A stretch of 32,000 bases of DNA from Promethearchaeota archaeon (GTDB lineage: Archaea; Asgardarchaeota; Lokiarchaeia; Sigyniarchaeales; Promethearchaeaceae): assembly GCA_016933055.1 (NCBI GenBank), contig JAFGBS010000036.1:1-32000 (forward strand), written 5' to 3'. The translations under genes and the position numbers were made by a program. This document shows positions 991-29,560 of this stretch, one piece after another (the stretch's first letter is position 1; each line of letters opens with the position of its first letter). Under the pieces are notes generated by a model. The model made no database searches. It was not told the origin of the DNA and saw only the letters and a program-made list of their open reading frames with translations.

Positions 991-1101
991 TTGAAACTAC
1001 CTTATATCAATATCTATCCTTTCAAAAAATCACTCCCGCTATGTATTAAGCGAAAAGTTTTGCGCTTAGAACCATTTAACCTGTAACTCACTTTCAGATT
1101 C

Positions 1102-2508: not shown

Positions 2509-2538
2509 TTTCTTTCGAGCCACCTACCTCTTTTAGAT

Positions 2539-2835
2539 TTAATTGTTGTATTTTCCTCCTTCATTAAATACAGAATGAAATGCTTCACTATAACACTTAA
2601 TACACACATTTATTATTTTTGAACCATCGTTAGATAAGTGGAAATATTGCTCTATGAGGGGCTTTTTGGATGATTTAGATGAATTTAAGTAGTCTAAAAG
2701 ATACTCCTGATCTTCAGAATTTATGCATGATAACTCAAAATCAACTTTTTGATACTCTGATATATTTATAGGAGAATTACAGTAATAACAGAACGTTATC
2801 GATGAGTTCTTCATTTTATCAAACTGTGAGTTCAT
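2539..2835 (-). CDS. Small putative zinc-binding protein
   Basis: 98-aa ORF with CYYC and CIKC pairs, and a TATA-like sequence about 20-30 nt upstream. Confidence 0.5.
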   Translation of the reverse strand: MNSQFDKMKNSSITFCYYCNSPINISEYQKVDFELSCINSEDQEYLLDYLNSSKSSKKPLIEQYFHLSNDGSKIINVCIKCYSEAFHSVFNEGGKYNN

Positions 2836-2920
2836 GTTGATTAGGAAAATCCTTTATATTTAAATCCAAAAATGGATATAAACAACACAAAACATCGCAT
2901 TAAAAAAAAAAACAAATGAT

Positions 2921-3400
2921 TCAGGTTGGTAATTCAATTACTTTTTGTTTAGAGATTATTTCAATTAATCTTTTAGGTTCTTTTTTTAATAGTGTGGAAA
3001 TCAGTTGTAAATATCCCCCGATTCCTCGTTTATCAATAGCAATCACTACTTTTGGATGGTCTAAGTAGTCTTCAACAACCTTACGATATTTTTTTCCCAT
3101 GATAACCAAAATCTTATCGTAATTCTGTAAATATTTTTCAAATTGGTCATTTGTTGCCGATTTTAATCTCAGAATATCTTGCATCGTCTCGATCCTTTTC
3201 TCATATGGTTCTATAACATCATCTGAGTCAATAAGTCCGTATTTTGCACTCAGAATCTTAAGCTTTGCATCTATTTTTCGAGATAACTTCACAATCATCT
3301 TGAACAGTTGACCTTGATATAATTCGATTGCTTTACTCGATCTGTCAAGTTTAGATTTAGAGCAACTTGTTAATATCATTATTTTGGGTTTCAAATGCAA
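2921..3400 (-). CDS. DUF6884/YaaA-like family protein (start probably TTG at 3394)
   Basis: ILTSCSKSK...AIELYQGQLF...ILSAKYGLI...IEPYE pattern. An AGGAG SD lies 7 nt before the TTG at 3394. Confidence 0.65.
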   Translation of the reverse strand: MHLKPKIMILTSCSKSKLDRSSKAIELYQGQLFKMIVKLSRKIDAKLKILSAKYGLIDSDDVIEPYEKRIETMQDILRLKSATNDQFEKYLQNYDKILVIMGKKYRKVVEDYLDHPKVVIAIDKRGIGGYLQLISTLLKKEPKRLIEIISKQKVIELPT

Positions 3401-3476
3401 TCTCCTTTACACCAAATGATGATTCAATGGTCAATTCTAGTATTGTTTTTAGCACTTATGTACATTATTTACTCAA

Positions 3477-4565
3477 ATGTCATCAATACCCACCGATTCA
3501 TTTGAAGACATTTCCACAGAATTCTCCCACTACTTCCAGGTCGGTTCGCTGACTTCCAGTTATAAGCCCGTTCTCCTAAAGTCGATTTTATTTTGTATAA
3601 AGCGAGGCAAAACTCAACGTATGAGGGATATTCACTTCATATCCATGGATAACATTGCCATCTATTTCCTTAAATTCTACTTCTCGCTATATCGGCGCTT
3701 TAATATTAAGCAATTGACCTCGAAAAATAACAAAATCACGATCTATCGGATAATCGACCGTTATATCGATGAAGAAACCACGAAATTATACGATCGGGAC
3801 ATCTCGGATGAGATTGTTGATAAGATAAAAAAAGCCCTTTATAGAAATGTCATTTATCTGCTGAGACAAGATTCATATTTTTATGAATTCTACGATTCCC
3901 ATCACGATGTGATCGCTTTACCCCGTGAGATAAAGGATGAGCAAGATTTCAACCATCTGCTTAAGAAACTTGACGTACACCGCAGAGAAATCGCTTTCAT
4001 CGGCATCCCGGATAAAATTGTTTTATTCATCGAAATGAATCGCCCAATTCTGGATGCCGCGATTAATGCGAATCTTGCTCTATTTCTGGAAAAGATTAAC
4101 ACAGTTCCAAATTTGAACATCAAAATTCTTGCAGCGGATGGTAGTTTCGATGAGATCCGAAACATCTCTCCATTATTAAAAGAGAAATTATGTGCGTATC
4201 AGAACGACTGTTGTTTTTATTGCGGGAAAAACATGAGTGATACTGCCGAAGCGGATCATTTTGTACCGTATAATTATCTTTTTGACTCTCAGATTTGGAA
4301 CATCGTCGGTGCGTGTGAGAAATGCAACGGGAAAAAGTCGAATCATGTGGTTCAGGAAGAATATTTGAGGAAAATACAGGAACGGAATTTGGAAGAGGAA
4401 TTTAGGCACGTATTTTTCCAAGATAGACTGGATTCGTTGGAATTTGCGCAAAATATGAATAAAATCTTGGAACAGCACTATCGGAATTGTTTATTAAATT
4501 TCAAATTGCTAAAAAAGCGAAATCTTTCAGTTGATTTTGGAAAAGAAATATCTCATATGTACTAA
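3477..4565 (+). CDS. HNH endonuclease with a 'SYKPVLL' N-terminal putative DNA-recognition domain
   Basis: CCFYCG...EADHFVP...WNIVGACEKCNGKKSN is a zinc-binding HNH motif. N-terminal TSSYKPVLLKSIL is typical of this HNH family. Confidence 0.85.
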   Translation: MSSIPTDSFEDISTEFSHYFQVGSLTSSYKPVLLKSILFCIKRGKTQRMRDIHFISMDNIAIYFLKFYFSLYRRFNIKQLTSKNNKITIYRIIDRYIDEETTKLYDRDISDEIVDKIKKALYRNVIYLLRQDSYFYEFYDSHHDVIALPREIKDEQDFNHLLKKLDVHRREIAFIGIPDKIVLFIEMNRPILDAAINANLALFLEKINTVPNLNIKILAADGSFDEIRNISPLLKEKLCAYQNDCCFYCGKNMSDTAEADHFVPYNYLFDSQIWNIVGACEKCNGKKSNHVVQEEYLRKIQERNLEEEFRHVFFQDRLDSLEFAQNMNKILEQHYRNCLLNFKLLKKRNLSVDFGKEISHMY

Positions 4566-4652
4566 TTCCCAATTTATCTGATCTTCTTTAATTCTGAATC
4601 CATGGTAGGTAATAATATAACATTCAATGATTCCTCATTGAAATAAAATGAT

Positions 4653-6626
4653 CTAAGGATCTTTTTTCGCTGAGTTGGTATCTATTCGATCTAAATATTC
4701 TTGATAAGCTTGGAATTTCTGTGTTATGATATTGTTAATGAAATTCCCAATCTTTATTTCAAAGTCATATTTAGTTCTATCTCTTTTTTGGAGTTGCTCT
4801 ACCATAACTTTAGATAGGTATTCTGAAAACTCTTTCTTGTTTATTCCAAAGAGTATCTCATCTGTAACAATATCTTCAACTTTTTCCTCATCTTTCATTT
4901 CTGATAGTCTTTTTCTAGCTTGATCATAAATTTCCTCTTCTTTTCCTTCATAACTTTCTTCATTGTCTGATATGTATTTTTTTATTGCACGAATGATTTC
5001 TTCATGGGAAAAATTAACTGTAGCAAAATCGGGATATGGTAAGTAATAGTTTTCTTCAGGTATGCCCTTATCTTTGAGATTTGCTACTTTACCTGGCAGA
5101 GATTCTTTTTTATCCAAATCTAAAACAAGGAAGGATCTCTTGCTAATAACTTTGAAATAGTATTCAATGAAAAGGAAGTCTCTACTTTTACCATTTAAAG
5201 GAACTGCGATAACTGGTACTCCAATTATATAATAAACCATATATAACCATTCTCTTAAGAAAATATAATCTGTTGAGCCTTCTACAAAAATAATTACAGA
5301 ATTTTTTGGGGTTAATCCGTAATCTAGAAGTAGATTATCGAGGTGTTCATAGAATTCTTCTTCTGTATCAAAATAAAAATTTGGTTTCCAAAAATCTGTT
5401 GCTTTTTCTTTTTCTGCAGGAAATTGCAATCCATTTTTTTCCCAAATTTTCGTAAATGCCTCTAAGTATCGGGATATTTGAATGAGGTTCATGAGGTAAT
5501 TGAGAAATCCTTTAAGTTTTTTTTTTTTGCTTGGTTTGATGATAGACAATATGTCAACAATTTTCTCTAAACCATCGAAATTTCCGACCAAAAGACATTC
5601 TATCTTTTTATAGAGATCTCGAAGAGTCTTTAAGTCATCAGTTGAAAAATCAGAGGATAGAGATTTTAGCTTTTTATCATACCAATTATTATACTCCGAA
5701 ATCCCATCTTGAACATTTTTATTATCATCCCTTACCCAAGGATCGTATTTCCTCCAACTCATATTAACGCGTGGATTACTTCCTAGAGTGTAAAAAAAAG
5801 GACGTGTAAAGGATTCCACTCTAATCCATAATCTCAAAATATCAGGTTTTAGCCAACAATACTGGACGTAAAATATTTCTCTGAGAAGATTATAATTTTT
5901 CGCCGAATCGACTTTCATTTGAATAAATTCTTCTATGGAATTGTTTTTAGATTTCAATGATTCTTTTATTCGATTTATTACGTAGTCATCAAATCGAAAT
6001 CTGCGTATCCAATAGAATTTCTCAAAATGACTCCTATTACTTAATAATGATAAAGAATCACCTCTCATTAGGGTCATAGCTTGAATGAACTGGATTGGAT
6101 GGTAATAATATCGAGTTTCTTCAATAGAAATTTTTATATATTTCTCTTCAGTAGTTTCAGATATTTCAGTTTTTTTTTCCTCGGGAACCTCAAGGGTATG
6201 CTCAATTTTCTGATGATTCCAAAAATCTGTTTCAATAAAGTTATTTAATTTACTCTCTTCCGTGGTATCAATATTATAAATTTCCTCCGGAAAATCTATA
6301 ATTCCAAAATCGTCCATTTTTTTCCATGAATTTAGAGTAACCCTATTAATCAGAACCTCCTTATCGTTGATACATTGAAGGAATGGATGGTTTTTTGGGA
6401 ATTTTGCAACACAAAAGGGCTTGATCAATCCAATAAAGTTATACCATTCCATTAGTATACAAAAATCCTCAAATCTCTCAAATCCTCTTTTTATTTTCAG
6501 TTTTGAATACCATATAAACATATCTTTCAAATCTATTAACTCTCGAGCATATATGGGGCAGTAATTTAAATATTCTTCGAAAATCTCTCGATAATTGTTA
6601 GATTTGGTTTCAGAATCAGCCATCAA
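4653..6626 (-). CDS. Protein with a C-terminal OLD-type TOPRIM domain and a large unassigned N-terminus
   Basis: IIFVEGSTDY and FLVLDLD (DxD) TOPRIM motifs in the last third. No Walker A motif was seen in the N-terminal ~440 aa. Confidence 0.65.
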   Translation of the reverse strand: MMADSETKSNNYREIFEEYLNYCPIYARELIDLKDMFIWYSKLKIKRGFERFEDFCILMEWYNFIGLIKPFCVAKFPKNHPFLQCINDKEVLINRVTLNSWKKMDDFGIIDFPEEIYNIDTTEESKLNNFIETDFWNHQKIEHTLEVPEEKKTEISETTEEKYIKISIEETRYYYHPIQFIQAMTLMRGDSLSLLSNRSHFEKFYWIRRFRFDDYVINRIKESLKSKNNSIEEFIQMKVDSAKNYNLLREIFYVQYCWLKPDILRLWIRVESFTRPFFYTLGSNPRVNMSWRKYDPWVRDDNKNVQDGISEYNNWYDKKLKSLSSDFSTDDLKTLRDLYKKIECLLVGNFDGLEKIVDILSIIKPSKKKKLKGFLNYLMNLIQISRYLEAFTKIWEKNGLQFPAEKEKATDFWKPNFYFDTEEEFYEHLDNLLLDYGLTPKNSVIIFVEGSTDYIFLREWLYMVYYIIGVPVIAVPLNGKSRDFLFIEYYFKVISKRSFLVLDLDKKESLPGKVANLKDKGIPEENYYLPYPDFATVNFSHEEIIRAIKKYISDNEESYEGKEEEIYDQARKRLSEMKDEEKVEDIVTDEILFGINKKEFSEYLSKVMVEQLQKRDRTKYDFEIKIGNFINNIITQKFQAYQEYLDRIDTNSAKKDP

Positions 6627-6668
6627 TATCCCTATATGATTCTCTTTAAAAATAATTACTGTATCCCG

Positions 6669-6676
6669 TTTATAAA
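6669..6676 (-). promoter_or_regulatory. TATA box candidate for ORF 4653..6626
   Basis: TTTATAAA about 43 nt upstream of the ATG. Confidence 0.4.
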
Positions 6677-6739
6677 GGTTTGAAGTCTAAAGAACTTTCA
6701 TTATCAGGGGATTAATATTTATTATTTCAAATTTGTGAC

Positions 6740-6922
6740 GTGATAGTACGATTTTGATTCTATTTAGATTCTGTGGACCCGAACCTTTATCCGTCTCACC
6801 TACCCGCATGAACTGTTTAAAACTACGTTGTTAACTATTCAGACAATACTGTTACCTCTTCTACATGTGTTGAGAGAGGAAAAATGGATGAAAAATTATT
6901 TAAATCACTAGATAGATGTTGA
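6740..6922. repeat. Copy 1 of a diverged ~180-bp non-coding direct repeat (copy 2 at 13607-13779)
   Basis: Shared blocks: TTCTGTGGA, CCTTTATCCGT, CACCTACCCGCA, TACTGTTACCTCTT, ACATGTGT, GAGGAAAAATG and ATTTAwATCAC..GA.AGAT.TTGA. Confidence 0.85.
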
Positions 6923-7372
6923 CTGGTTATACTGGATTTGGAGGTGGGTTGGGATCATGCATAATTTCAACCACATCTGATTGAGAACTCTCTTCTTGCT
7001 CTCCAAACCACTCATTATCATTGTTTTGAGCAATAACTTCGAGTGTGGAAGTTTCTATCGAGTCTGGAGTGTCAATGCTATAAACATGGGATGTTTGTCC
7101 ACACATTATTTCTCTCTTGTTGCAGAAATTTATACAATTCTCTTGAAGAACATGATTTAGAAGAAAGAGAACACGAAGAGGATGGGAGGGTGTTCGTCAT
7201 GAAATTGACAAGATTGGGGTAATCTGTTGCCATTTTGTTCGTTTAGGTATTCTTTAAAGATATTTTATTGGAATTTTATCGAAAACGAACAATCAGCACT
7301 TAAATTCAACAGTAAAATTATATACGAAATTTTAGATATACAGAATGAGTTCATTTTATTGAGGAGGTTTTT

Positions 7373-8317
7373 TTGGATAAAAATAATCAAGATTACCTAT
7401 ATTTACGTAAATTAGGATTATCACATGAAGAAATCATAAATCGAATAAAACGGTACAGTAATCAGGGATTAACCGAAAGCGATGCATTAAAGACTCTAAA
7501 AACAGATGAAGAGAGAATCATTGAAATTCATATCGAAATCGAAGGATTAAAAGTTTATTTTCTTAAGGTTCTTGCAGAGATTTTAGAGTTTCAAGTGATC
7601 CCAAATTTTCGTCAAGAACCTATTGATCTTGAACTCTATGGTATAAACAATCAAAAACTGTATGAAATTAATTCATTACCTGTGTTGTTGGCAGTATTAG
7701 AAGAGATTAAAGCAGAAAATGAAAAACGAATACCTGCAAAATATCCAGATTGGAATGATTATGGATATTTTCCTTATCATCGAAATCAAGCTATATCCAA
7801 ATTATTAGAAAGTCGTGATTGGTATGTAGGAAGGTTAAAAACATATAAAAAACAAGGAATTTCAATAGATTTTCCATTCCAATCAGTAAAACCCACGTTT
7901 TTTAAAATTCCTGATAAAATCCAAAATACAAACTTAATCTCGGTTATGATGCCTTTCAGAGAAGAATTTGATCCTATTTTTCAGGAAATCATGAAAGTTT
8001 GTGAAAACTTATCTATGGAATGCAAACGAGCTGATCAGATATTCGATAACTATATTGCAATTCAAGATGTGTTTGATTTAATATATCTCGCTCGTTGTAT
8101 TATTGTGGAACTTACAGGAAAAAATCCGAATGTATTCTATGAGTTAGGGATTTCTCATGCTTTTGGGAAAAAAGTCATTCCGATTATCCGAAAAAGTGGA
8201 GAAAAAATTCCATTCGATGTGCAACATCACAAGGCTATCGAATATGAGGGTGATAAAATGGATGATTTCCGAGAGAAACTGGATAAACGACTAAAAATCA
8301 TATTGAGTATTGCTTAG
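7373..8317 (+). CDS. Protein with a C-terminal nucleoside 2-deoxyribosyltransferase-like / TIR-like domain
   Basis: VMMPF...CKRAD...IIVELTGKNPNVFYELGISHAFGK...IPFDV...IEY is the signature of this family. TTG start with a GAGGAGG SD. Confidence 0.75.
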   Translation: MDKNNQDYLYLRKLGLSHEEIINRIKRYSNQGLTESDALKTLKTDEERIIEIHIEIEGLKVYFLKVLAEILEFQVIPNFRQEPIDLELYGINNQKLYEINSLPVLLAVLEEIKAENEKRIPAKYPDWNDYGYFPYHRNQAISKLLESRDWYVGRLKTYKKQGISIDFPFQSVKPTFFKIPDKIQNTNLISVMMPFREEFDPIFQEIMKVCENLSMECKRADQIFDNYIAIQDVFDLIYLARCIIVELTGKNPNVFYELGISHAFGKKVIPIIRKSGEKIPFDVQHHKAIEYEGDKMDDFREKLDKRLKIILSIA

Positions 8318-8440
8318 TTGAATGAGATTTCATTCAAACTATCATAATCTTAATGGAATCGAATTTTACGTGAAAAAGGATTTTCAGGTAATTATTTAAG
8401 TCTCAATGTTAAAGGAATTCAATGGTATTATTACTTTTTA

Positions 8441-11017
8441 ATGGGTCTAGGGGTAAAGATGAGTACGTTAACCAAAATGGGTGTGGAATTATATAATCTG
8501 ATCAGCAACGTATTACGTTCTTATTCAAATGAAATCTCACCTTATGAAGCATTTGTCGATGAAATTGCTCAAAATTTCTTTGATTCTGCTAAAAAATATT
8601 ATAGGTATTGCGTCAAGGAAAATGTAAAACCAATAAATTCATCAATGAAAGTTCTTTTTATCGAAGATTATAATGGAAAACCAGCAATTGTAATTAAACA
8701 AACCGGTACAACAGGTATTATCCATAGAAAAGAATATGTCACATATTCTTTAACTCAAAAGGATAAGGATGAAGACGCTGCAGGAAGTCAAGGAGTTGGC
8801 TGGAAAATATGGTTTATGATATGCGATGAAGTGCATACAGAGACTATAGTCGATGGGAGATATTATCAAACTCTCCAAAGGGTAGAAAATAGAGATATAA
8901 AGGTCGCCCATAATGACGATAATTGGAGTACATATTTTGAACATTTTCAAGACACATTAATAAGTGAAAATGGAGAAACTTCAATAAAGTTCTTGAATGT
9001 GAACAATTCACACGGTTTTAACGAAGATGAATCAACAACATATTTTCAAGAATTATGGAAATGTTGTGAAAAAGTAATTCAGGAAAGATATTATTGGGCT
9101 CTGAAAAAATATCCTACATTTAGTGTTGATTTGATTTATACAAATTCAAAAAAAACTCAACCATCTCAGAAAGTCACTATCTCCCTTAATGAATACCCTC
9201 CTTTATATCCAGGATTAAATGATTCCGATTGCAGAACCTCAAATAAATTCATTCGTAACAAGACCAAAAATTACGGTGTGGTCAAAGATATCTTTGTTGG
9301 ATTTACAAATGAAATTCATTCAAAAATAAATGATGGAGTAGCAATTATTGTCAGAGATAGGGTAGTTGAATGGTATAATCCTAGGTCACAATGGGTTGGA
9401 ACGCCTGGTGCTAATGGAAAATTAATTGGTCATGTTTGTTGTGATTTTCTATATAAAAAAGACAATATGACTCATGATAAATTAAATGATATTTTTCCCG
9501 AAGTAAAACTGACTAGGCATTTCATAAGAACGTTGATACAGAAACTATACGTAAAAATAAATGAACTTCATGTTGTTGATGTGCCTAAAGTTTCACACGG
9601 AAATACAATTTTAACAACAATAAACAACGCAATTGCTGAATTTATTGATAGTGAGGATTTGTTTTCAGAAGCAAAATCAGATATTGACTATGAACCTTTG
9701 GGAGAAGAACCATTTAATAAAACTCCTAAACCTGAGAAATTCATTTATATCAAAGGAATTTTATTAACTGAAAAAATTGAAGATGGAATTCCCCAAAAAA
9801 TGAATGATACTGATCCATTAACTCCGAGTAATGAATATAGCGCGTTAGTGGAAATTTTAAACACAAAAGATGAATGTGAAGCTATTGTCAATTACTCTTC
9901 ATTTCCAAAATATTTTGAAATTAAAAGAGCGATAAAAATATCCCCAGGAACCACTAAGGACATTTTTAAATTCCAGATACCCGAAGATGCAATGAGAGGA
10001 GCATTTCATTTAAAAAGTATTGTTAGATCTCAAGATGAAAAACTATTGGAAAAAAGGATCATTTCAAGAGAAATCCTACCTATAATTTCAAAGGTAGAAT
10101 TATCTGAAAGAAATTTTGAGAGAGGGAATGAATATCAAATTTCCTATAAGGTTTGTAGATCCTCTTTGAGGGGAAACAGAGAATTCTCGTGCAAAATATA
10201 TGACAATGAAAATTTTGAAATTCATGAAGAAGGACCTATAACTTTAAAACGGGCTGAAACAGATAAAATTGAATCTTTTTATTTTAAAATTCCCCCTCAA
10301 GCACTAAGAGGGAGATATACTTTTGAGTATCAGGTAAAAAATGGACCAAATATCATACAAAAAGGAAGAGAATACTTCTTTGTGGAGTTATTCATCAATA
10401 GAATAAAATCATCAAAACGAATTGTAAAGTACAATGAAAAATTTGATATTACCGTCGATCTTGAAAATAAAAGACAGATCCCTGTAGAAGATGCAGAATT
10501 AACAATAAGAATTGAAAATTCTAATCATTTTGAAATGAAAAAAGAATTTACAAACATTTCTATTCAGAAAAATTCAGACTTCGCAATAAAACTTGGAGAT
10601 TTAGAATTTGATGAAGATTGTGATACAGGAAAATATAGTGTTATTGTTGAATTCAAGCTAGAAGATGATTTTGCTCCAGAAGTGAAAACAACAAAAATTT
10701 TCCTCGAAACAGAAACTAGTACCAAAGATTCGAAGGGAGCTCTTAGTCATTTTGATTATAATAAGAGCATTAAAGGATATGAGGATAAAAATCTGGCAGT
10801 TTCTGTTGAAGGCACAATAATGATCAATACTTTTCATTATTTATTTAGGCGAATTGAAACTCCTACTGGGATTGATCTCAATCTATTCAAACAATGCATC
10901 ATTCAAGCATTATGGTTTGCGTTTCGAGATCAGATAACAAAGGATAATAGATTTGAAGAAATGTGGGAATTTGAGAAATATATACTAGAGGATAAAAAAT
11001 TGGGGGAGATTTTATGA
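8441..11017 (+). CDS. GHKL (MORC/Hsp90-like) ATPase with three Ig-like repeats (start possibly 8459)
   Basis: N-box DEIAQNFFDS, G1-like KQTGTTGI, G2 GSQGVGWK. Repeats FQIPEDAMRGAF, FKIPPQALRGRY and FDEDCDTGKY. C-terminal IMINTFHYLF resembles MORC tails. Confidence 0.7.
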   Translation: MGLGVKMSTLTKMGVELYNLISNVLRSYSNEISPYEAFVDEIAQNFFDSAKKYYRYCVKENVKPINSSMKVLFIEDYNGKPAIVIKQTGTTGIIHRKEYVTYSLTQKDKDEDAAGSQGVGWKIWFMICDEVHTETIVDGRYYQTLQRVENRDIKVAHNDDNWSTYFEHFQDTLISENGETSIKFLNVNNSHGFNEDESTTYFQELWKCCEKVIQERYYWALKKYPTFSVDLIYTNSKKTQPSQKVTISLNEYPPLYPGLNDSDCRTSNKFIRNKTKNYGVVKDIFVGFTNEIHSKINDGVAIIVRDRVVEWYNPRSQWVGTPGANGKLIGHVCCDFLYKKDNMTHDKLNDIFPEVKLTRHFIRTLIQKLYVKINELHVVDVPKVSHGNTILTTINNAIAEFIDSEDLFSEAKSDIDYEPLGEEPFNKTPKPEKFIYIKGILLTEKIEDGIPQKMNDTDPLTPSNEYSALVEILNTKDECEAIVNYSSFPKYFEIKRAIKISPGTTKDIFKFQIPEDAMRGAFHLKSIVRSQDEKLLEKRIISREILPIISKVELSERNFERGNEYQISYKVCRSSLRGNREFSCKIYDNENFEIHEEGPITLKRAETDKIESFYFKIPPQALRGRYTFEYQVKNGPNIIQKGREYFFVELFINRIKSSKRIVKYNEKFDITVDLENKRQIPVEDAELTIRIENSNHFEMKKEFTNISIQKNSDFAIKLGDLEFDEDCDTGKYSVIVEFKLEDDFAPEVKTTKIFLETETSTKDSKGALSHFDYNKSIKGYEDKNLAVSVEGTIMINTFHYLFRRIETPTGIDLNLFKQCIIQALWFAFRDQITKDNRFEEMWEFEKYILEDKKLGEIL

Positions 11018-12672
11018 CAGAGAAATTATTAGACACCGATAAAGGAAAACAAGATTATATAGATCCTATTGTAGGTGAAGATCCACTACTAAATACAGAA
11101 AAATCAGGTAGAGTATCTCAGATAGCTCAAAAGTTGCACCAAGCTTTGAATTTCAATGATAATGAATGGATTCAACTTGCGTTAGACTTACTCGTTGGGA
11201 AGATGATTATGGATTATAAATATCTAGTTATGGTAAAATATTCAGAGTATATAGGATTAGGAAAACAGAATATTTTTCTGGTTCATGATATCGGGACACT
11301 TGTTAATGATTTTGTGTCAAAACGAGAAATAGATTTAGAAAATAAAGAGTTTCGAAAGAGCTCAGGATTTACATTTAATCGAGGAAGTGTGATAAATCAT
11401 CTAACCTCTCTAATAGATTTTTCGTCCAAAAATGAAAAAAAATACAATTTCAATCAAACATATCTTCGAAATTTTTCAACTATTGCATATGAGTTTGACA
11501 AAAATGAATTGGATCCTGAAATCCCTGTATACATATATAAAGAATTAGTAGAACGAGTTCCAGTAGATATGTTTGAAACCCCTAATCAAAGAAAAAGGTT
11601 TCAAAATAATATATTAGAATTGCGTAGAGAAGAAACTTTCACAGACAGACACTTGAGGATTATAATAAATTTAGTAAGGGAAGATCCTATAAATAGAGCA
11701 AAAATTGAGTACATACGTCGAATTTTGCCTGATGTAAAAGAAATTAAAACTTCTATGAGTTTTCCTGATGCTTTAAATTATGTCAAATCTATTGAAAAAT
11801 CTGGTAAGCAGAAAAAAGAACAAGTACTTCCCAGTTTGGAACAGAATGGAGTGCTTCGTTTACCACAAGCTAATGATGTTTCAAAATTCATCAAAATTGT
11901 CCAAGATGTTTCTCATGGAATAACAAAACCAGAACAATTAGCCGATAATATAGAAATTTCTGAACGCCAGATACATTATTATAAGGATGCAGCTCAAATT
12001 CTAAATTTATTAACAGAGAATGGGAGAAATTATACATTCACACTCACCTCTATTGGTCAAAAACTTGCTGAGACTAAAGACGAAAACGAACAGAATGAAA
12101 TTTTATATCACCAAATAATGAAAACCGAAGTTATTAAGCACATTTTCTTAATGTTAAAAGAAAGTCAAGAAGATTATATCCTCGTTGAAGAATACTTGAA
12201 TGATTTAAAGCATAGGAGTGCTCTATCTGATTCTACGATCGCAAGAAGAACAGCAGCTATAATAAGCTGGATTAGATGGATTGAAAGTTACAATGAATTA
12301 TTACGGATTGTCGAAGAAAAAATAATAGTTAAGAACGAATTCTCTTGGAATTGCGTTAAAAAACAAATTCTTGAAATTATCAATAAATATCGAACAATCA
12401 ATACACTAGCTAATGGAAAACCAAATATTATCGAAGTATTTGATGATACAGGATTAATGGTAAAGACTGATCACGACTCAGAAGCAAAAAAAGTTTCATT
12501 TAACACAATTAAAGATGTATGGTTCAATTTAGTAGAATATGGAGAATTAGAACTGGATAATCATGAGCTGACCTCTTATAGAAGTTCGTTTGTTTGCTCT
12601 TTATTGTCTCAATTACCAATTGTCAATGTTTTAAAAGAGGGAAAAATCTCGATAAAATTGGTTGGGATTTAA
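11014..12672 (+). CDS. Multidomain protein: unassigned N-terminus, DUF7226-like winged-helix region, C-terminal 'SYRSSF' domain
   Basis: LPQAND...RQIHYYKDAAQILNLL...LTSIG...SDSTIARRTAAIISWIRWI resembles wHTH domains of restriction-associated proteins. ATGA overlap with the GHKL gene and a GGGGAG SD. Confidence 0.6.
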   Translation: MTEKLLDTDKGKQDYIDPIVGEDPLLNTEKSGRVSQIAQKLHQALNFNDNEWIQLALDLLVGKMIMDYKYLVMVKYSEYIGLGKQNIFLVHDIGTLVNDFVSKREIDLENKEFRKSSGFTFNRGSVINHLTSLIDFSSKNEKKYNFNQTYLRNFSTIAYEFDKNELDPEIPVYIYKELVERVPVDMFETPNQRKRFQNNILELRREETFTDRHLRIIINLVREDPINRAKIEYIRRILPDVKEIKTSMSFPDALNYVKSIEKSGKQKKEQVLPSLEQNGVLRLPQANDVSKFIKIVQDVSHGITKPEQLADNIEISERQIHYYKDAAQILNLLTENGRNYTFTLTSIGQKLAETKDENEQNEILYHQIMKTEVIKHIFLMLKESQEDYILVEEYLNDLKHRSALSDSTIARRTAAIISWIRWIESYNELLRIVEEKIIVKNEFSWNCVKKQILEIINKYRTINTLANGKPNIIEVFDDTGLMVKTDHDSEAKKVSFNTIKDVWFNLVEYGELELDNHELTSYRSSFVCSLLSQLPIVNVLKEGKISIKLVGI

Positions 12673-13364
12673 TGAATTCACATGATGCTATTGCTCGGAA
12701 ATTTGAGAATTATTTCCAAAACGCACGTATGACTTCAAGCTATAAACCTGTGATGTTATTGTCAATTTTGTATCATATTAAACAAAGAAAATCCACGTAT
12801 CTTCCTTCTGCGAATATTTATTTTATTTCATTGAATGATATCGCACTATTTTTTCTGAAATTCTATTTTTATACGCTTAAGTATTATGATCTTAACCATT
12901 TGACCAATAAAAATAACAAAATTGGGATTTACAGAATAATTGAGAAATATTTCCGTGATTTCAATACATTCCCAGAGTACTTAAATCATAAAATTATCAC
13001 AAAAACAATCAACCAATTATTTCGAAATGTTATCTTCTTGCTACTGAATGATATATATTTATATGATTTTTACGATGAGCAATTTCAAGAATTTCGATTA
13101 CCTCACGAGTTTATTGGTAAAGATGATTTTCGAGTTGTTATCAAAAATAAAAAAATTCGAGTCGAAGAAATTAAGTACTTAGGAATTAAAGAATCAGCAT
13201 ACCTTTATCTTAGTTTAAATTATACGAATCTTAAAAAGAAGATAAACCTAAATTTGATTCAATTTCTAAAAAAAGTAAATTACTCTTTTGATTCCTTTGA
13301 TGAAATAGATAGATTTTATGATAATTTATCAAATTTGAAAAATATGATGTCAGATTCTAATTAG
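12672..13364 (+). CDS. Paralog of the N-terminal domain of HNH 3477..4565, lacking the HNH domain (truncated or repurposed)
   Basis: TSSYKPVMLLSIL...FISLNDIALFFLKFY...KNNKIGIYRII aligns with 3477..4565. The true start is the ATG at 12672 (TAATG overlap), not 12594. No CxxC/HNH motif. Confidence 0.8.
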   Translation: MNSHDAIARKFENYFQNARMTSSYKPVMLLSILYHIKQRKSTYLPSANIYFISLNDIALFFLKFYFYTLKYYDLNHLTNKNNKIGIYRIIEKYFRDFNTFPEYLNHKIITKTINQLFRNVIFLLLNDIYLYDFYDEQFQEFRLPHEFIGKDDFRVVIKNKKIRVEEIKYLGIKESAYLYLSLNYTNLKKKINLNLIQFLKKVNYSFDSFDEIDRFYDNLSNLKNMMSDSN

Positions 13365-13422
13365 CTCAGAAATTCTATTTCTAAAGATATGGTAATTTGT
13401 CGTCTTGGACTCTCTGGAAAGA

Positions 13423-13551
13423 ATGGAAACTACCGAAAAAGTATTTTTTCAAATTAGGATTAATTCGGTAGAATTTGCTAAAAATATGAATATAATCTTG
13501 GAACAGCACTATCGAAATTTTTTATTGTATTTTAAATCAGTAAAAATGTAA
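13423..13551 (+). pseudogene. Detached C-terminal tail of the HNH paralog
   Basis: Translates to VFFQIRINSVEFAKNMNIILEQHYRNFLLYFK, versus VFFQDRLDSLEFAQNMNKILEQHYRNCLLNFK in 3477..4565. It is in a different frame from 12672..13364. Confidence 0.85.
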
Positions 13552-13606
13552 AATGCAAAGTCCAAAGTGTAAACAATAGGAATTGCTATTGGTCCACATC
13601 TTTAAT

Positions 13607-13779
13607 GTGATAACATATTTTTGATTCCATTTTTGGTTCTGTGGATACGAGCCTTTATCCGTGCCACCTACCCGCACGAACCGTTTAACACTATATTGTT
13701 ACCTATTCGGACTATACTGTTACCTCTTTAACATGTGTCAAGTGAGGAAAAATGATTTATATCACACGACAGATATTGA
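13607..13779. repeat. Copy 2 of the ~180-bp non-coding direct repeat
   Basis: See copy 1. Contains ACTATATTGTTACCT (13690) and ACTATACTGTTACCT (13711) at 21-bp period. Confidence 0.85.
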
Positions 13780-14582
13780 TAAATAGTGTTTAACCAAATT
13801 TCTATTTTTATTTTTTGTGTGTAATGATTATGGCATCACAAACAAAAACTGCTAAAAACGGTAATTAAGTATGGTGAATTATTCGGTGCTCCCCGTCTTT
13901 TGGATATTACCCACAATGCTCACTTCGTAATGTCGATGGGGGTAGTATTATTTAAGAGATTTTTTGATTTAGTGGAAAACATCGTAGATGCGGGTTTCCC
14001 GTAATTATACCACCCTTTACAATTGATCCATATCCCATTGATTATAAGAATGTGAAATCGAACAATCAACAAAAAATTGTTGAAAGATCTTGTATAAGAA
14101 ACAAGATTACCTTGAGAAGATATATAAAAAATGGGATTTCAAGGGAAGAATGGATATTCCTGTGTATGTTATCTATCTGAAGTAGGAAATATCCCAAAAA
14201 GGGGAGATTTTCTCGTATGGTCCGATTCCACTGCGATAGTTTATATACATGGAAGATATGACTCGTTTTGGTAAAATATTTAGTTTTTCATATTTTCCCT
14301 AACTTAACTTTTGATTTTTTCAGGTACTGAGTGGTTAATAGGTACTCTATTAAATAAATGATTTATTTTGCTTGCCAGCCTATCTCTTTGATCTTTTCCT
14401 TAGATTTTGCGATTCTTCTTAAATTTTTGATCCCATATTGGATAAGCTCATTTACCTAGGCAGTCATTAAAAGTCACACACTCTTCTACTAATTTGTACT
14501 AAGTTGTTGAAAAAGTACATTTCATAATAAACTTAACAAATGAATAGTAATCCTGAGATGCAGAATAATTCCATATCCGGAT

Positions 14583-15617
14583 ATGAACCCAATGAAAAGT
14601 GTAAAAAATAGTTCCAAGCTCCAACGAATGCAAGATTTAATTAAATTGACTCCAAAACTCATTCAGCATTTCGATGAAATCATGGAAATTCTTATCGAAC
14701 AGAATACTGTGTTCGAAAAAACGATTCATCAGGAAATTCTCGGAGGATTTCAATCAGTATTCAATGAAATGTTGAACCATCTCGAATATTGGGCAGAATT
14801 GACTCAACTAATCATGTTTTTATCCAACACATTTAAAATTCTTCAAAAAACCCTCATTTATTTCGATTATTTACGCTATATTGAAAAGGAATTCAATGAT
14901 CCAAGTTTCAAAATACTCAAAGAGTACACCAGCAATAAAATAAGCGAATTTGATGTCGCTTCTGTTGAAAAACAGATGAAACAGAGCTTAGATTTTCTCC
15001 AACATCAAAGTGACTTGGACTTATTTGCACAAGTAAAGAGTGATCCAAACTATCTTGAATATATCAGAGGCAGGGAGCTCTTTTATCTAAAGGATATCTG
15101 CTTCAATTTTTGTCACGCATATGAAAGTCTAGTGGTAATTTTGACGTTTTTTCTAGTCTTGATTCGGTTTCTGCTAAAGGAACCGTCGAATTTAATAGAA
15201 AATGCGTTAAAAACTCATAAAAAAATTCCGGTTTGGCAATTATATGAAGAAAATGGGCAATATCCCTCGGCAGATGTCTTATTAAAGGATGGTCTCAACC
15301 GAATATTTGCTACTCCGCCCTCAGCTCTTATGAATTTTTTGGAAGAGATATTCGGACCGCATGGGTATCGGGAAATTCGGAATCGAATAGTGCATAATAT
15401 GGAAGAAGAAGGATTTTGTGAAATTCTAAAAGAATCAAAACTAAAAATTACATTTCCTGATCACATATCGCAGGTTTTTTCCATAGACGATCTCAAACGA
15501 CTCTATGCGAGATTGTTTTCTATTACAGTTGAAGTGTTTGTAATGAATGAACGCGGAATTTTCGTTGGAGTGTTTAAGAAAATCCAAGACATTTTGCGAA
15601 AAAATAAGGTAGACTAA
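14583..15617 (+). CDS. Putative HEPN-domain protein
   Basis: Helical protein with C-terminal REIRNRIVHN (Rx4H, RNxxxH type, nt 15378-15395) and an upstream conserved-looking YESL helix. Confidence 0.55.
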   Translation: MNPMKSVKNSSKLQRMQDLIKLTPKLIQHFDEIMEILIEQNTVFEKTIHQEILGGFQSVFNEMLNHLEYWAELTQLIMFLSNTFKILQKTLIYFDYLRYIEKEFNDPSFKILKEYTSNKISEFDVASVEKQMKQSLDFLQHQSDLDLFAQVKSDPNYLEYIRGRELFYLKDICFNFCHAYESLVVILTFFLVLIRFLLKEPSNLIENALKTHKKIPVWQLYEENGQYPSADVLLKDGLNRIFATPPSALMNFLEEIFGPHGYREIRNRIVHNMEEEGFCEILKESKLKITFPDHISQVFSIDDLKRLYARLFSITVEVFVMNERGIFVGVFKKIQDILRKNKVD

Positions 15618-15679
15618 TAACAATTCCAAATTTTCCATCAAAAAAAATATCATAAAGTAGTTCTATATATTAGATGTAA

Positions 15680-16591
15680 ATGAACTTCAATCCCCAATTA
15701 CACTTGACAGAAATTAAGGAACATTACCTTAATGATTTAAAAACTGCATATTTAGCTTCACGCCAAGCAACCTATGATAATTACGATAATTCTCAGTTTT
15801 ATAACGAATTGATGAAAGAATGCATTTTAAATCCCTCAATTCACGAAATTGTTCGAACTTATTTGTCAAAGTTTCAGATTCCTGGTGTGCAGATTATTTT
15901 TGGTTCTGATCCTAAAAAACGAATGGAGGAGAATTTGAAAAAAATAGAACCAGATGAAATGATGAGTCAAGAGGACTTAGAGAGGGATGCAGAACAAATT
16001 GATCAAGTAATTGAAGATTATAAAAAAGAAGAAATATCTTGTGTAGTCATGAATTATCTCATAGGGGCTGTAGAAGTAGGAGTACACGAACGTGAAATGA
16101 AGTATTATTATGCTCCCACAGAGATTCGAGTTTCTGAAAGGTTGTTTGTATACTGGGCTTCTAGGCATTTTTATAAAATGCTACACCCATTGAACGATCA
16201 CTATCTGAAAATGGCAGTTGTCTATCAATTCTCGTTTTTTGAAGCGTGTTTGAAAGACATGTTGCAACTAGTTGTTGATCATACTGATCACATGGACTTT
16301 CTACGATGGGGGGGAGAAATGAACCTTTTACATCGTATATTCCTTCGAATGAATATCAATTTAGAAGATTTTCCCAAATGGGAGTTACTTAAGAAATTAT
16401 ACACTAAACGAGTAGTTTTTATTCATTGTTCAGGAATTTTGGATAAGAACACAGTTAATAATTTGGATTTGGATGAAAAATTGATTGGAGAGCCTTTAAA
16501 AGTAGATTTATATGATTTAATGACTCAGCATGAAACATTGAAAGAATTTTTACAATGGATTCCAGAACGAATTATCCCCTTATTCAATTAA
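15680..16591 (+). CDS. Putative HEPN-like protein (degenerate motif)
   Basis: FSFFEACLKD helix followed by KRVVFIHCSGILD (Rx4H; resembles RNxxxHxxGxVD). Confidence 0.45.
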   Translation: MNFNPQLHLTEIKEHYLNDLKTAYLASRQATYDNYDNSQFYNELMKECILNPSIHEIVRTYLSKFQIPGVQIIFGSDPKKRMEENLKKIEPDEMMSQEDLERDAEQIDQVIEDYKKEEISCVVMNYLIGAVEVGVHEREMKYYYAPTEIRVSERLFVYWASRHFYKMLHPLNDHYLKMAVVYQFSFFEACLKDMLQLVVDHTDHMDFLRWGGEMNLLHRIFLRMNINLEDFPKWELLKKLYTKRVVFIHCSGILDKNTVNNLDLDEKLIGEPLKVDLYDLMTQHETLKEFLQWIPERIIPLFN

Positions 16592-16617
16592 TTAGAGAAA
16601 CTGGAGAGTATGGTATT

Positions 16618-16860
16618 ATGTCAAAGAGAATAAAAAATATAAAAGAAAGGATAGAAAATGCACTACCTTATTTTGGGGAAATTTTTGAGAATCCCTTTGA
16701 TCTGAATGTCGATGAACTCGCAAAAAATCCTCATAAAATCGAGGATCATGGTAAAACACTTTTTTTGACCAAGAACTTCGTAACTAAATGTCTTAAATTG
16801 TTCAAATCCCATAACTCAGAATCCTCAATTTGCCGTCGATTTGTCAATATCAGATGTTGA
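16618..16860 (+). CDS. Hypothetical protein, possibly truncated
   Basis: ORF with a GGAGAG SD; ATG at 16618 is more plausible than the track start at 16555. No motif recognised. Confidence 0.35.
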   Translation: MSKRIKNIKERIENALPYFGEIFENPFDLNVDELAKNPHKIEDHGKTLFLTKNFVTKCLKLFKSHNSESSICRRFVNIRC

Positions 16861-17054
16861 ATTTTACTTTTTATGCATGAAATCTTGATCTGTAGAACTT
16901 ATTGAAAAAATTTTTGTCCTTTAAGCATCATGAGCTTAATCGATTTTATCCATAAATGAGTTATTAAGACAATTAAGTTCTCAATAGTTAAATGTGCTAG
17001 TCGGTTGATCAAGGTCAATTAAGCACCGATATGTAAATATTGAGGGAAAAAAAC

Positions 17055-17261
17055 ATGGATGAGGATAAATCACTGGAAGAACGTGAAAGAGAGCTACGAG
17101 AACGTGAATTGGAGTTAAAAAAGCGAGAACTTAAACTTAGGGAAAAGCAGAATACTGTTTTAGAGAAATCTACGAATATGTCAACGTGCATATGGGTAAT
17201 TGTTGGAATTTCCACGGTGATTTCCATAATATGGATGCTGATTAGCTGGATTCAATGGTGA
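17055..17261 (+). CDS. Small coiled-coil protein with a single C-terminal transmembrane helix
   Basis: ERERELRERELELKKRELKLREK followed by ~25 hydrophobic residues. GAGGG SD before the ATG at 17055. Confidence 0.6.
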   Translation: MDEDKSLEERERELRERELELKKRELKLREKQNTVLEKSTNMSTCIWVIVGISTVISIIWMLISWIQW

Positions 17262-17371
17262 TATCCATTAAAATAAAATAGGACAGTTATACTGGACACT
17301 GAAGAATTTGAGTAATCGACATGCGCAGAACAATATAAATACCACATAAGTGGATCTTTAATAGGAGAAAA

Positions 17372-18718
17372 ATGAGTATGTTGAGTCAAAACCTTAAGAA
17401 AACCATCCAAAACATGCATACAATCCCTTGGAAACTATATCTTTCTGTGTTATTGACACATCTTTTACCAACAATTTACGTTACCATTCGCATTTACTTC
17501 CTCGGTGATTTACCCAGCGATTGGGGTGTAAACATTGCTTCGCAACTAGTTTGGATAAGTTTAGTTTTAGAAGTCATACAGGAAGGTCTCATCCTACCAC
17601 TTTTTTACATTATTGGTAAGACTTCTAAAGATCGGAACGAAACAATCAATAAGGTAAAGACTGGTTTACTAATTACGATTGGAATTCATGTTCTCATTCT
17701 CGCAATTGTTGGGATATTCACTCCCGCTTTCGTACGGGCAATGGCTCAAAATCCCGCATTACAAGACGCTACTGTAGTCTATATTCGCTTAGAACTAATT
17801 TCACTACTCATTCAAAGTGTTTTCAAATTTCTCTTTATCTTATTCATAATTTATGACCAAAGAGTAACCATTTATCTGCTTTTACTCGTGCAGATGATTG
17901 GAACGGTGATTTTGGATACATTTTTTGTTAGTTCGTTTTCATTTTCGCTTAATCTAGGAGTTAATGGCATCGCTTATTCAAATATCATTATCTATTCCCT
18001 CTTAGTAGGGATGAGCATTTATCGGGCTATTAGAACTTTTAAGCTAACGAAAAAAGATTGGCGGGTGCATACCAGCTTTACATGGCTGAAGGAATGGGGA
18101 CGTGTCGGAGGGTATTCAGCTATGGATTCCTTCATTCGCAACCTCTTCTATATGGTATTTATTATTCGAATGATGAATATAATAGCCGAACAAGGCACGT
18201 ATTGGGTTGCGAACGGATTTATTTGGAGTTGGTTATTACTACTCGTTTATCCGTTGACCGATATCATTAAGCAAAAAATTGCTACAACCCTTCCCGAAAA
18301 ACTCAAAGGATTTTTAAATCCATATTATCTATTTTCAACGATTATTGTTCTTCTTTGGTTTCTGACGATGCCAGGATGGATGTGGTTCATCACAAAAGTT
18401 CTCAATGCTGCGGAACCACAAACAGTATTTCGATTAGTGCTTTTATTGTTACCAGCCTATATTTCTTTTGTGTATAATACCGTAGCGGATGCCCTTTTCT
18501 ATGCCATTGGCAAAACTGAATCTCTTGCTATTCAAACGATTCTAACTAATATTTCTGTGTACGGAATTGCCTTTATCCTCTTTATTACTGGTAATTTCAT
18601 CCCCACGTTATATTCTATCGCAATTTTGTTTAGTATAGGCATAGTAATTGACGGGATCTTGACTTTCATACTGCTACGTTATTATATTCGCAAATATGAA
18701 ATGAATTCCACGCACTGA
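17372..18718 (+). CDS. MATE-family (Na+-driven multidrug efflux-type) transporter
   Basis: 448 aa with about 12 TM segments, LPTIYVTIRIYFLGDLPSDWGVNIASQL...EVIQEGLILPLFY pattern, and an AGGAG SD. Confidence 0.8.
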   Translation: MSMLSQNLKKTIQNMHTIPWKLYLSVLLTHLLPTIYVTIRIYFLGDLPSDWGVNIASQLVWISLVLEVIQEGLILPLFYIIGKTSKDRNETINKVKTGLLITIGIHVLILAIVGIFTPAFVRAMAQNPALQDATVVYIRLELISLLIQSVFKFLFILFIIYDQRVTIYLLLLVQMIGTVILDTFFVSSFSFSLNLGVNGIAYSNIIIYSLLVGMSIYRAIRTFKLTKKDWRVHTSFTWLKEWGRVGGYSAMDSFIRNLFYMVFIIRMMNIIAEQGTYWVANGFIWSWLLLLVYPLTDIIKQKIATTLPEKLKGFLNPYYLFSTIIVLLWFLTMPGWMWFITKVLNAAEPQTVFRLVLLLLPAYISFVYNTVADALFYAIGKTESLAIQTILTNISVYGIAFILFITGNFIPTLYSIAILFSIGIVIDGILTFILLRYYIRKYEMNSTH

Positions 18719-18995
18719 TCCCAAATTTGAGTCTAATATGTAAAACTAACGAAATTTTGTTAGGAATATATAATTCAACATTTGCTATAGGTTTTTGAGT
18801 AGAAACTTAAAGATGAATGTAGGATATTTATATTTACGTATTATTCCACTCCAATCAGTAAAGAGAAATCACGTGAATGATTTTCATCAATTGGTATAAA
18901 TCTCCAAAAATGCCAATATTTCTAATAACAAAAAAGATACAGAATAAGGGAAAAAATAATCGTCGGTTGTATTTCACACTAATATATCAATAAAA

Positions 18996-19829
18996 TTAAG
19001 AGCATGAATCACACAAAGGATTTTCACGTGATACATTACTCTCCTCTCCACATTTCAAACAAAACTTTCCTTTTTCATGTTTATAATAGCAAACTGTACA
19101 AAATGGAGTTTTTACGTTAAAAAAAACGAATTTTCTACAACCTATACAAAATCCACGTTCTTCAATTGGGCGTAGACTTAGTTTACCACATTCTGGACAA
19201 ATTAGAGTTTTATTACTATCTGTATTATGCATTAACTCAAAACCGCACAATTTACAAAGCCATATTCCTGATCGCTGTTCTTTAAAATTTTCAGGTTTAA
19301 CTTTTATTTCTTGACTTGAATTCATTATCGTCCAATCAATTGCAGGTAACAATTTTTCGTCGTATTCATCTGCAGTTTCGTGAATTGGTGTTGTATCTCC
19401 TGACCTCCTCATGGTTTCGACGTTTTCTATAACCTTGTCATATAAATTCTTATCCTTTATCGAAGTTTCTGGTTCTATTAAGAATCCCATTTCCCAATTT
19501 TTTTTCCAGGAAGATTTAAGAAGGTTTAGAGATGAAACAACCATTTTATTCTCATTATAATAACATTTCGAATGTAAATTAGCAACACAATAAAGATTAA
19601 CATATTTCAACTCTTCCGCTACACGCTTTGCTTCTTGGATAGTCGCTTTTTTCTTACGATAATATATTTCGACTAAAATACCTCTCTCCTTAGATGCATA
19701 TTTAAGATGAGAGTAGATTTTTTCCGGAAAGTCCAGAAAAGGACTGATTATAATTATGAACTTCCTCGCATCAATTATAACTTTAACAATCTCACCGCAT
19801 GCTGCTTCCATAGGTAGAAATTCGACCAT
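18996..19829 (-). CDS. Phospholipase D-like (single HKD) nuclease-type protein with six CxxC pairs
   Basis: IIISPFL...LHSKCYYNE...SSLNL...NWEMG, followed by CKLC, CPEC, CIGC, CTVC, CLKC and CDSC. Confidence 0.75.
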   Translation of the reverse strand: MVEFLPMEAACGEIVKVIIDARKFIIIISPFLDFPEKIYSHLKYASKERGILVEIYYRKKKATIQEAKRVAEELKYVNLYCVANLHSKCYYNENKMVVSSLNLLKSSWKKNWEMGFLIEPETSIKDKNLYDKVIENVETMRRSGDTTPIHETADEYDEKLLPAIDWTIMNSSQEIKVKPENFKEQRSGIWLCKLCGFELMHNTDSNKTLICPECGKLSLRPIEERGFCIGCRKFVFFNVKTPFCTVCYYKHEKGKFCLKCGEESNVSRENPLCDSCS

Positions 19830-28357: not shown

Positions 28358-28844
28358 CCTTAAATCGCGAATTTTACTAAACTCACCTAACTGAGATTTT
28401 GTAATTTCAACAAGATTAGAAATTTGGGATAAATCGAAATTTAAATTACTCAAAATGAATCCTTCATATTATTGTCGGAATGAATGTACCCACACAACAC
28501 ACTACATTAGATTGAATAATGATATTTTAGTGGTTTCAGATTATTTAATTACGCAATAGTCTAGCGATAAAAAAGAGTGAACTTAAATAATCTTCAAGTA
28601 ATCCTCTCGCATTCATTAATCCCAAAGTTAATTTAAATCCAATTAAGTTTTATAGAGATATATGAAAATATTAACACCAACGAAAAATATTACGGAATTT
28701 ATTGAATATTGGTCAAATTTCTACACATCAACATCTATACGGCTTAACATAATTAAAAATTGATCCATTTAATGCTTGACTATCGTAAAACACCGTCAAA
28801 CTCGTATAATAGAATCAATTTACGAATTTACACCAAATTTAATA

Positions 28845-28965
28845 CCGTCCAGATGTAGAATACTTAAGTCCGAAGTGCGGGTCCTTGGGCGGAGGAATAA
28901 ACACCTATCTCGGATAGGTCAAAAGCCGAATGCGAAGCATGAGGCTTATTCATGTTAAAATGAAT
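28845..28965. other. GC-rich non-coding element with four consecutive hairpins (candidate structured RNA or ssDNA signal)
   Basis: Stems: CCGTCCA/TGGGCGG, ACCTATC/GATAGGT, AAGCC/GGCTT enclosing ATGC-GAA-GCAT, and ATTCA/TGAAT. 52 of 106 nt are G+C over 28845-28950 by manual count. Confidence 0.45.
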
Positions 28966-29029
28966 CTAAATCCACTCCAAATTGACAGAAGTTCGTACTA
29001 TATACCCCCTATTCCCCTAACGTGGGTAT

Positions 29030-29560
29030 CACGGAATAGAATTTTACTAATCAAAATACAGTAACATAGATATTGAATATGATCAGAACATCAGAATTCA
29101 AAACAACACATATCAGCCTTTATCAAAGGCTAATCTAAAACATCTTCTACATTGGAAAATGGATTGGAAAGGAAATCTGCTCAATAAATGGACAAATAAT
29201 GTCTCTCAACATCTTTCAGAAATTAATAATCTACGAAATGCAAATTCAATCAATGAAATTGTAATTATGAACTTCATAAATACCATTCCAAAGAAAATTG
29301 TGAAAAGTGGTAATGTGCTGAGGGTATTTATGATGCATTTAGCCCGTCCTTTGGAAGTACCAATCCTTGACCGCTTTGCTATACTCACATATGATGTTGT
29401 AACTGGTCAAAACATTTCTTTATTAATAAACAGAACTAACTTCATATCTTATCATTATCTGGATTATCGTGATTACATATTAAAACTCCAAAATCAAACA
29501 GGATCTTCAATTCGAGAAATTGATAGAGCATTTTGGGTGTATGGAAAGCATATTTTATGA
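29030..29560 (+). pseudogene. HhH/8-oxoguanine-glycosylase-like fold protein; intact 3' ORF (29159..29560) with an in-frame stop in its 5' extension
   Basis: VPILDRF...YLDY...IREIDRAFWVYGK. The same frame extends upstream as IEFY*SKYSNIDIEYDQNI (TAA at 29048). Confidence 0.4.

Follow-up and report, generated by a model that had tools for sequence, protein, structure and literature searches.

A ~190-bp inverted-repeat element of a Promethearchaeota genome as a probable subfamily of a genus-restricted, TA-flanked MITE superfamily

The window, a 32,000-nt stretch of DNA from the genome of a Promethearchaeota archaeon, contains a non-coding element of ~190 bp in two copies on the same strand, designated E1 and E2. 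The element is likely a ~190-bp subfamily of an orphan, TA-flanked superfamily of MITEs that is restricted to the genus. Each repeat would accordingly be a non-autonomous transposable element (MITE) with terminal inverted repeats of ~20 nt, and E1 and E2 would most likely be separate insertions into a variable region rich in defence genes. The element is short and without coding sequence, has terminal inverted repeats, occurs in dispersed copies and shows presence and absence between genomes in one case that involves two copies. An autonomous insertion sequence (IS) with the same ends and a transposase was found neither in the source assembly (G000; a 91% complete MAG with an archaeal 16S, comprising 36 contigs and 3.76 Mb) nor in the sister species (G001), the only other genome of the genus and a MAG that is 76% complete.

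A preliminary description of the window had reported a diverged, non-coding direct repeat of ~180 bp. The repeat was confirmed, and its true extent was slightly longer with the boundaries set by alignment of the genomic copies and by the inverted repeats (Table 1). A repeat search of the window aligned 6763-6886 with 13631-13754 at 84% identity over 124 nt without gaps. Comparison of the E1 and E2 regions with BLASTN gave E = 5e-35, the mean column identity in the MAFFT alignment was 81% and the identity over the full element was 79.6%. The same description had listed two boxes exactly 21 nt apart in each copy, GC-rich blocks CCTTTATCCGT and CACCTACCCGCA, and a shared GAGGAAAAATG followed by an indel, all of which were recovered in the alignment, with GAGGAAAAATG at 6876 and 13744 and an indel length of 11 nt. 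Its statement that most reading frames are broken by stop codons extends to all frames of all copies, every one of the six frames having 1-8 stops in each copy. Results beyond that description are the terminal inverted repeats, four more genomic copies and a larger family with the same ends.

Table 1. Coordinates of the element copies, their parts and related features. Positions without a contig prefix are those of the window; positions with a contig prefix are those of G000.
Feature	Coordinates	Strand	Basis or remark
Element copy E1, 196 bp, non-coding, MITE-like	6727..6922	+	Six-copy alignment, inverted-repeat ends, stops in six frames
Element copy E2, 187 bp, oriented as E1	13593..13779	+	Alignment of copies, inverted-repeat ends
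Other copies in G000	C11:3989-4175; C17:30461-30647; C6:420166-420363; C36:~103571-103775		C36 copy diverged
Left terminal inverted repeat of E1	6727..6745	+	Decayed, 1-nt deletion, TA-T before it
Right terminal inverted repeat of E1	6903..6922	+	Ends ...ATAGATGTTGA
Left terminal inverted repeat of E2	13593..13612	+	
Right terminal inverted repeat of E2	13760..13779	+	Ends ...ACAGATATTGA
Internal direct copy of terminal motif, E2	13730..13745	+	AACATGTGTCAAGTGA; E1 counterpart 6862-6877
Two 15-nt boxes of E2, 21 nt apart	13690..13725	+	13690-13704 and 13711-13725
Two 15-nt boxes of E1, 21 nt apart	6822..6857	+	6822-6836 and 6843-6857
Conserved GC-richer block CCTTTATCCGT...CACCTACCCGCA	E2 13652..13676; E1 6784-6808	+	Parts at 13652/13665 (E2) and 6784/6797 (E1)
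Segment between E1 and E2, 6.7 kb	6923..13592	+	Four ORFs: 7373-8317, 8441-11017, 11014-12672, 12594-13364
Larger-family member, 349 bp	28728..29076	+	Same terminal core

The first nucleotides of each copy read approximately TCAACATCTGTGAAGTGATA, and nearly the same 20 nt recur in reverse complement at its right end. The terminal inverted repeats have the core (R)TCAACATCTRT, and the terminal arms are complementary at 96 of 120 positions in the six copies. A third copy of the terminal motif is located ~50 nt from the right end and forms an imperfect palindrome with the right terminus. The core of box 2, TATACTGTTA, is invariant in all six copies of the source genome including the 64%-identical copy on C36, and the CCTACCCGCAC part of the GC-richer block recurs in two larger elements with the same ends. 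All copies contain a TTTAWAT box ~20 nt inside the right end, which presumably resembles an archaeal TATA element. The alignment of copies revealed that the internal blocks are conserved better than the terminal repeats, a pattern unusual for plain neutral decay to which a host-level function could contribute with small probability. A transposase supplied in trans would most likely bind the two boxes spaced by 21 nt, the internal repeat of the terminal motif and the CCTACCCGCA block as its cis sites. Protein-binding sites on DNA had been proposed earlier; the non-coding array of sites stands and the repeated boxes fit the binding sites of a mobile element, while binding itself we infer.

A search of the whole source assembly identified six copies on five contigs, with lengths of 187-198 bp and pairwise identities of 64-86%. 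All six are intergenic and adjacent to unrelated genes, the neighbors of the four copies outside the window being a malate/lactate dehydrogenase-like gene, surface proteins and an aminotransferase. The location of these four copies beside unrelated genes on other contigs lends no support to the suggestion in the preliminary description of operators or iterons for the local wHTH proteins, nor to that of an island-specific structure. E2 is 85.6% identical to the C11 copy, 82.9% to that on C6 and 82.4% to that on C17, each value greater than its identity to E1. Support in the tree of copies is weak and its shape star-like; E1 and E2 are not each other's closest relatives and were thus probably inserted separately. 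The star-like tree would fit separate insertions from a burst better than duplication in place. The TA flanks of the six copies are incomplete, most having TA on one side only.

The 11-nt core TCAACATCTRT has 60 exact matches in the source genome, where inverted pairs of the core bound many non-coding elements of 240-420 bp. The terminal core of these larger elements (...AATCAACATCTAT...) is that of the ~190-bp element, and the CCTACCCGCAC block or TTGTTAC boxes with a 21-nt spacing are found in some of them. Outside the ends, the ~190-bp copies and the larger members have only short internal blocks in common, and the ~190-bp element appears to be a distinct six-copy subfamily of a larger family with the same ends. 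The sequence just outside the core is typically TA-R, with TA at -3/-2 in 38 of the 60 ends compared to a genome TA background of 8%; at these ends a 2-nt duplication is indistinguishable from an extension of the inverted repeat. Two larger elements arranged back to back (C27:107256-107595 and 107600-108024) share one TA. The preliminary description had proposed a search of the genome and its relatives with the flanks recorded. The flanks of the six source copies are those given above and, among 14 genomes of the taxonomic family searched, the 20-nt end motif was detected only in the source genome (16 sites) and in the sister species of the same genus (7 sites). A reversed control of the 20-nt end pattern produced zero matches in both. 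None of the 120 loci returned by a metagenome-wide scan with this pattern fits the element profile, and the end pairs are attributable to chance, the pattern being too short for the collection. End-like motifs also occur at 29206 and 29737 of the window, where the region 28.7-30 kb is a cluster of such relics. Contigs C18, C9 and C35 of the source assembly end inside copies of the larger family and overlap by 87 identical nt, from which it follows that these repeats cause assembly breaks.

The inverted ends could also be the closing helix of a structured non-coding RNA family, with the right palindrome as a hairpin or terminator. A 16-bp hairpin at the right end is among the 40 pairs predicted by RNAalifold from five copies, and both the minus strand of the C11 copy (z = -3.45) and the copy from the sister species (z = -5.6) fold far below shuffled sequences. 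The stronger conservation of internal blocks relative to the ends and the TTTAWAT box near the right end of every copy are likewise compatible with an RNA. However, none of the 40 pairs has a double-sided change, and variants in the terminal arms (positions 3, 5, 8 and 10) result in mismatches, not compensations. The fold z-scores of the source-genome copies lie between +0.5 and -3.5 and favor neither strand consistently, and the minimum free energy approximates that of shuffles on both strands for three of the five (C13a, C17 and C6, z about 0). Low fold energy was obtained only where the inverted repeats are intact. Rfam yielded no match on the window at the gathering threshold and nothing relevant on six loci at E <= 1, and the TA flank preference of the ends is typical of transposition. 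On this evidence an RNA gene is very unlikely. The preliminary description had also named a decayed fragment of a protein-coding gene as an outcome contrary to its reading; this was not seen, the frames being broken by stops and the translated fragments of the element having no match elsewhere in the genome. Since there is no covariation, the folds are inconsistent and neither Rfam nor translated searches gave a match, the repeat appears to behave as a DNA-level inverted-repeat element and not as an RNA gene or gene remnant. Two candidate coding starts were rejected. The frame of a small conserved minus-strand ORF (MRVG.TDKGS start, common to E1 and E2) stops in the C11 copy after ~12 codons, as judged by eye, and an indel shifts the frame; the frame of a plus-strand ATG after GAGGAAAAATG is changed by the 11-nt indel that comes next. 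Two metatranscriptome runs gave essentially nothing and have no bearing on expression.

Comparison with the sister species identified a site that is filled in one genome and empty in the other. At G001:C65, two directly oriented copies of 186 bp are separated by 3.2 kb; they differ at about six positions (~97% identity by direct count) and enclose two VIT-family genes and a 184-aa ORF. The genes flanking this unit are syntenic with G000:C15:159-167 kb, where the sequence at ~165680 is continuous with a single TA (...CCTTTAGCTTCTCGC...). In G001 the junction is ...CCCTTA-G(element...3.36 kb...element)C-TAGACTCTCGC..., across which the flanking sequence on either side aligns to G000. TA is present on both sides of the unit in G001, compared to one TA in the empty site of G000. 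The unit, whose limits are the outer ends of the two copies, is thus present at TA in G001 and precisely missing from G000; this is the sole clean comparison of a filled with an empty site and concerns a two-copy unit, not a single element. Genes of the two species are ~70% identical and most intergenic DNA is unalignable. Empty sites for the single copies on C11, C17, C6 and C36 were sought in G001, where the flanks were missing or the intergenic sequence was too diverged.

Two element-like pieces in the same orientation are present 3.65 kb apart at G001:C144:16976-17190 and 20627-20733, one of them a deletion derivative of ~105 bp that retains both ends. The locus was not alignable with G000, where the orthologues of the genes between the pieces are at a different locus (C17:133-134 kb); the arrangement is a second hint of copies bracketing relocated genes. 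Identity between the species is 88% in two stretches that follow element copies at a distance of a few hundred nt downstream, G000:C11:3286-3807 with G001:C63:7748-8270 and G000:C6:418663-419357 with G001:C36:734-1427, as compared to ~70% for orthologous genes, which suggests recently exchanged DNA or strongly constrained sequence.

A source of transposase was sought in both genomes of the genus and in related genera. No ORF-bearing element was found between matching ends, and the ORFs between distant pairs of ends encode transporters, surface proteins and enzymes. Clustering of ORFs of at least 120 aa in the source genome revealed no multi-copy transposase, the multi-copy families being transporters and enzymes. 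The TA flanks are consistent with an origin from IS630/Tc1-mariner elements, and the DDE_3 domain of IS630-type transposases was absent from both G000 and G001, which are incomplete to the extent given above. DDE_3 was detected in 14 of 61 genomes of the order, and the IS630 ends that could be identified there are unrelated to the element. The DDE_Tnp_1 domain is represented by a single intact IS of G001 and a single decayed copy of G000; these IS4/IS5-type copies, the only ones in the two genomes, have ends unrelated to the element. The family is an orphan in the available data because no transposase with matching ends was found, and an unassembled partner is possible given that both genomes are incomplete. 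As an orphan with no cognate transposase in either genome of the genus, it would probably now be immobile. In the neighborhood of the C11 copy, at a distance of 1.6 kb, a 553-aa ORF (G000:C11:705-2366) has primase/helicase-like motifs as judged by eye and a paralogue at C31:712-3105, and the region may be an integrated plasmid- or virus-like element.

The origin of the pair in the window was evaluated from its surroundings. The four genes between E1 and E2 constitute a candidate defence block, and no counterpart in G001 was found for the window from 1 to ~17400; thus, this region is accessory DNA, without an empty site for the segment between E1 and E2. Across both copies, within 5521-17740, collinearity of the source contig was observed. 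No contig skipping E1, E2 or the interval was found over 1-20000, where the only joints were short-sided (<=22 nt) and were treated as noise. An independent hot-spring metagenome from 2017 contains the right junction of E1 and contains E2 with two SNPs, indicating that the arrangement is stable in two populations. An HNH-family gene at 3477-4565 and the ORF at 12594-13364 with an out-of-frame tail extending to 13554 are paralogues with 39% amino-acid identity, and the tails of these genes (4410-4523 and 13441-13554) are 80% identical. The paralogue at 12594-13554 has lost the region of the Cys/His HNH motif through deletions of ~105 nt and ~25 nt, and the 256-aa ORF and the conserved C-terminal tail (13405-13551) are in different frames; the paralogue appears to be an N-domain-only protein or a pseudogene. 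The C-terminal parts of the wHTH proteins encoded at 211-990 and 11014-12672 are also paralogous.

An alternative to separate insertion is that E1, E2 and the 6.7 kb between them form or formed one mobile unit that delivered the four-gene candidate defence block, either as a composite transposon bounded by the left end of E1 and the right end of E2, or as circular cargo with one copy that recombined into a resident copy. The unit at G001:C65 is a precedent, with two direct copies bracketing 3 kb and absent at a single TA in G000. E1 and E2 are also both full-length and oriented alike, E1 has TA-T-TCAA at its left outer flank, and the surrounding DNA is accessory. Nevertheless, the identity of the two copies is only ~80% and they do not group as sisters, a match to TA at the right outer flank of E2 requires a one-base shift, and neither an empty site nor a skipping contig is at hand, the source contig being collinear and G001 without a counterpart. 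Moreover, the HNH-family gene at 12594-13554 inside the interval is a paralogue of that at 3477-4565 outside, which favors local duplication over import. Delivery as one unit is therefore regarded as unlikely. The pair could instead be the residue of a single segmental duplication of an ancestral cassette composed of a wHTH protein gene, an HNH-family gene and the element. Both copies are downstream of HNH-family paralogues, the tails of which are as similar to each other as the elements are, and the paralogy of the wHTH C-terminal parts is in agreement with such an event. Against it, copies on other contigs are more similar to E2 than E1 is, and the bodies of the HNH genes are far more diverged than the elements. 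In addition, E2 begins 39 nt past the tail of its HNH gene, whereas E1 is 2.2 kb past its own with an opposite-strand 657-aa gene between. A segmental origin is extremely unlikely on these grounds.

It has also been considered that the element is more than transposon debris and serves Loki-type Asgard archaea as a recombination module for the capture and shuffling of blocks of accessory and defence genes, the conserved internal boxes being bound by an unrecognised recombinase outside the known transposase families. Integration of circular cargo with one copy would then take place at a resident copy, or the DNA between two copies would be moved by them. This we judge quite improbable. The preliminary description had likewise suggested a cassette end that builds the island. 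That idea receives indirect support only, from the two-copy, 3-kb unit of G001 that is precisely absent from G000; the window pair itself has no empty site, is ~80% identical and is non-sister. Most likely, E1 and E2 are not markers of a dedicated cassette system.

TA-flanked prokaryotic MITEs derived from IS630/Tc1-mariner elements include SM1 of Sulfolobus, cyanobacterial elements and Correia-type elements of Neisseria. Compared with these in general features, the ~190-bp element is similar in being small and non-coding, with inverted ends, TA outside and dispersed, diverged, intergenic copies. It differs in that no matching transposase was found in the genomes of the genus and the IS630 ends of related genera are unrelated, and in containing a further, internal copy of the terminal motif as well as two boxes spaced by 21 nt. 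Units that move cargo include composite transposons and the MITE-flanked integron mobilization units of Acinetobacter and Enterobacter. The G001 pair resembles these in bracketing 3 kb that is absent at a single TA in G000, and the window pair has the same geometry; unlike such units, the window copies are old (~80% identical) and movement of the pair is only conjectural. Integron attC sites and the repeats of Vibrio cholerae are also imperfect inverted repeats located just downstream of unrelated genes, in the orientation of the gene and in several copies. In contrast to attC sites, no integron integrase is nearby and the copies do not form an array, two of the six being 6.9 kb apart and the rest on other contigs. 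The ends also do not fit the GTTRRRY/RYYYAAC cores as judged by eye, and a TA flank preference is not a feature of attC. The pair is equally unlike the attL and attR sites of an integrated element in that the copies are ~80% identical, the window contains no tRNA, and the ORFs between the copies gave no integrase match. No match to an integrase family was found among the ten main ORFs of the window, which include those between E1 and E2, and no tRNA was found in the window or in seven loci searched; thus, there is no tRNA-linked att site.

MITEs are an ordinary kind of element, of which the ~190-bp subfamily is a further member under the reading preferred here. To our knowledge, MITE families have been little described in Asgard archaea. 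In annotation, the repeats should be masked as relics of mobile elements; their interpretation as operators, iterons or RNA genes of the neighboring candidate defence system should be avoided, as should their use as its boundaries. A genus-restricted family with sharp ends, no recognisable transposase and one clear case of a gene block that two copies bracket in one species and that the other species lacks is a usable marker that could help trace the assembly of accessory islands.

A further direct repeat in the window, 18361-18656 and 21502-21797, extends over 296 nt with 84% identity and a spacing of 3.1 kb. The former copy is in the 3' part of a 448-aa membrane-protein ORF (17372-18718) and the latter overlaps a short ORF; the repeat looks like a duplicated gene end.
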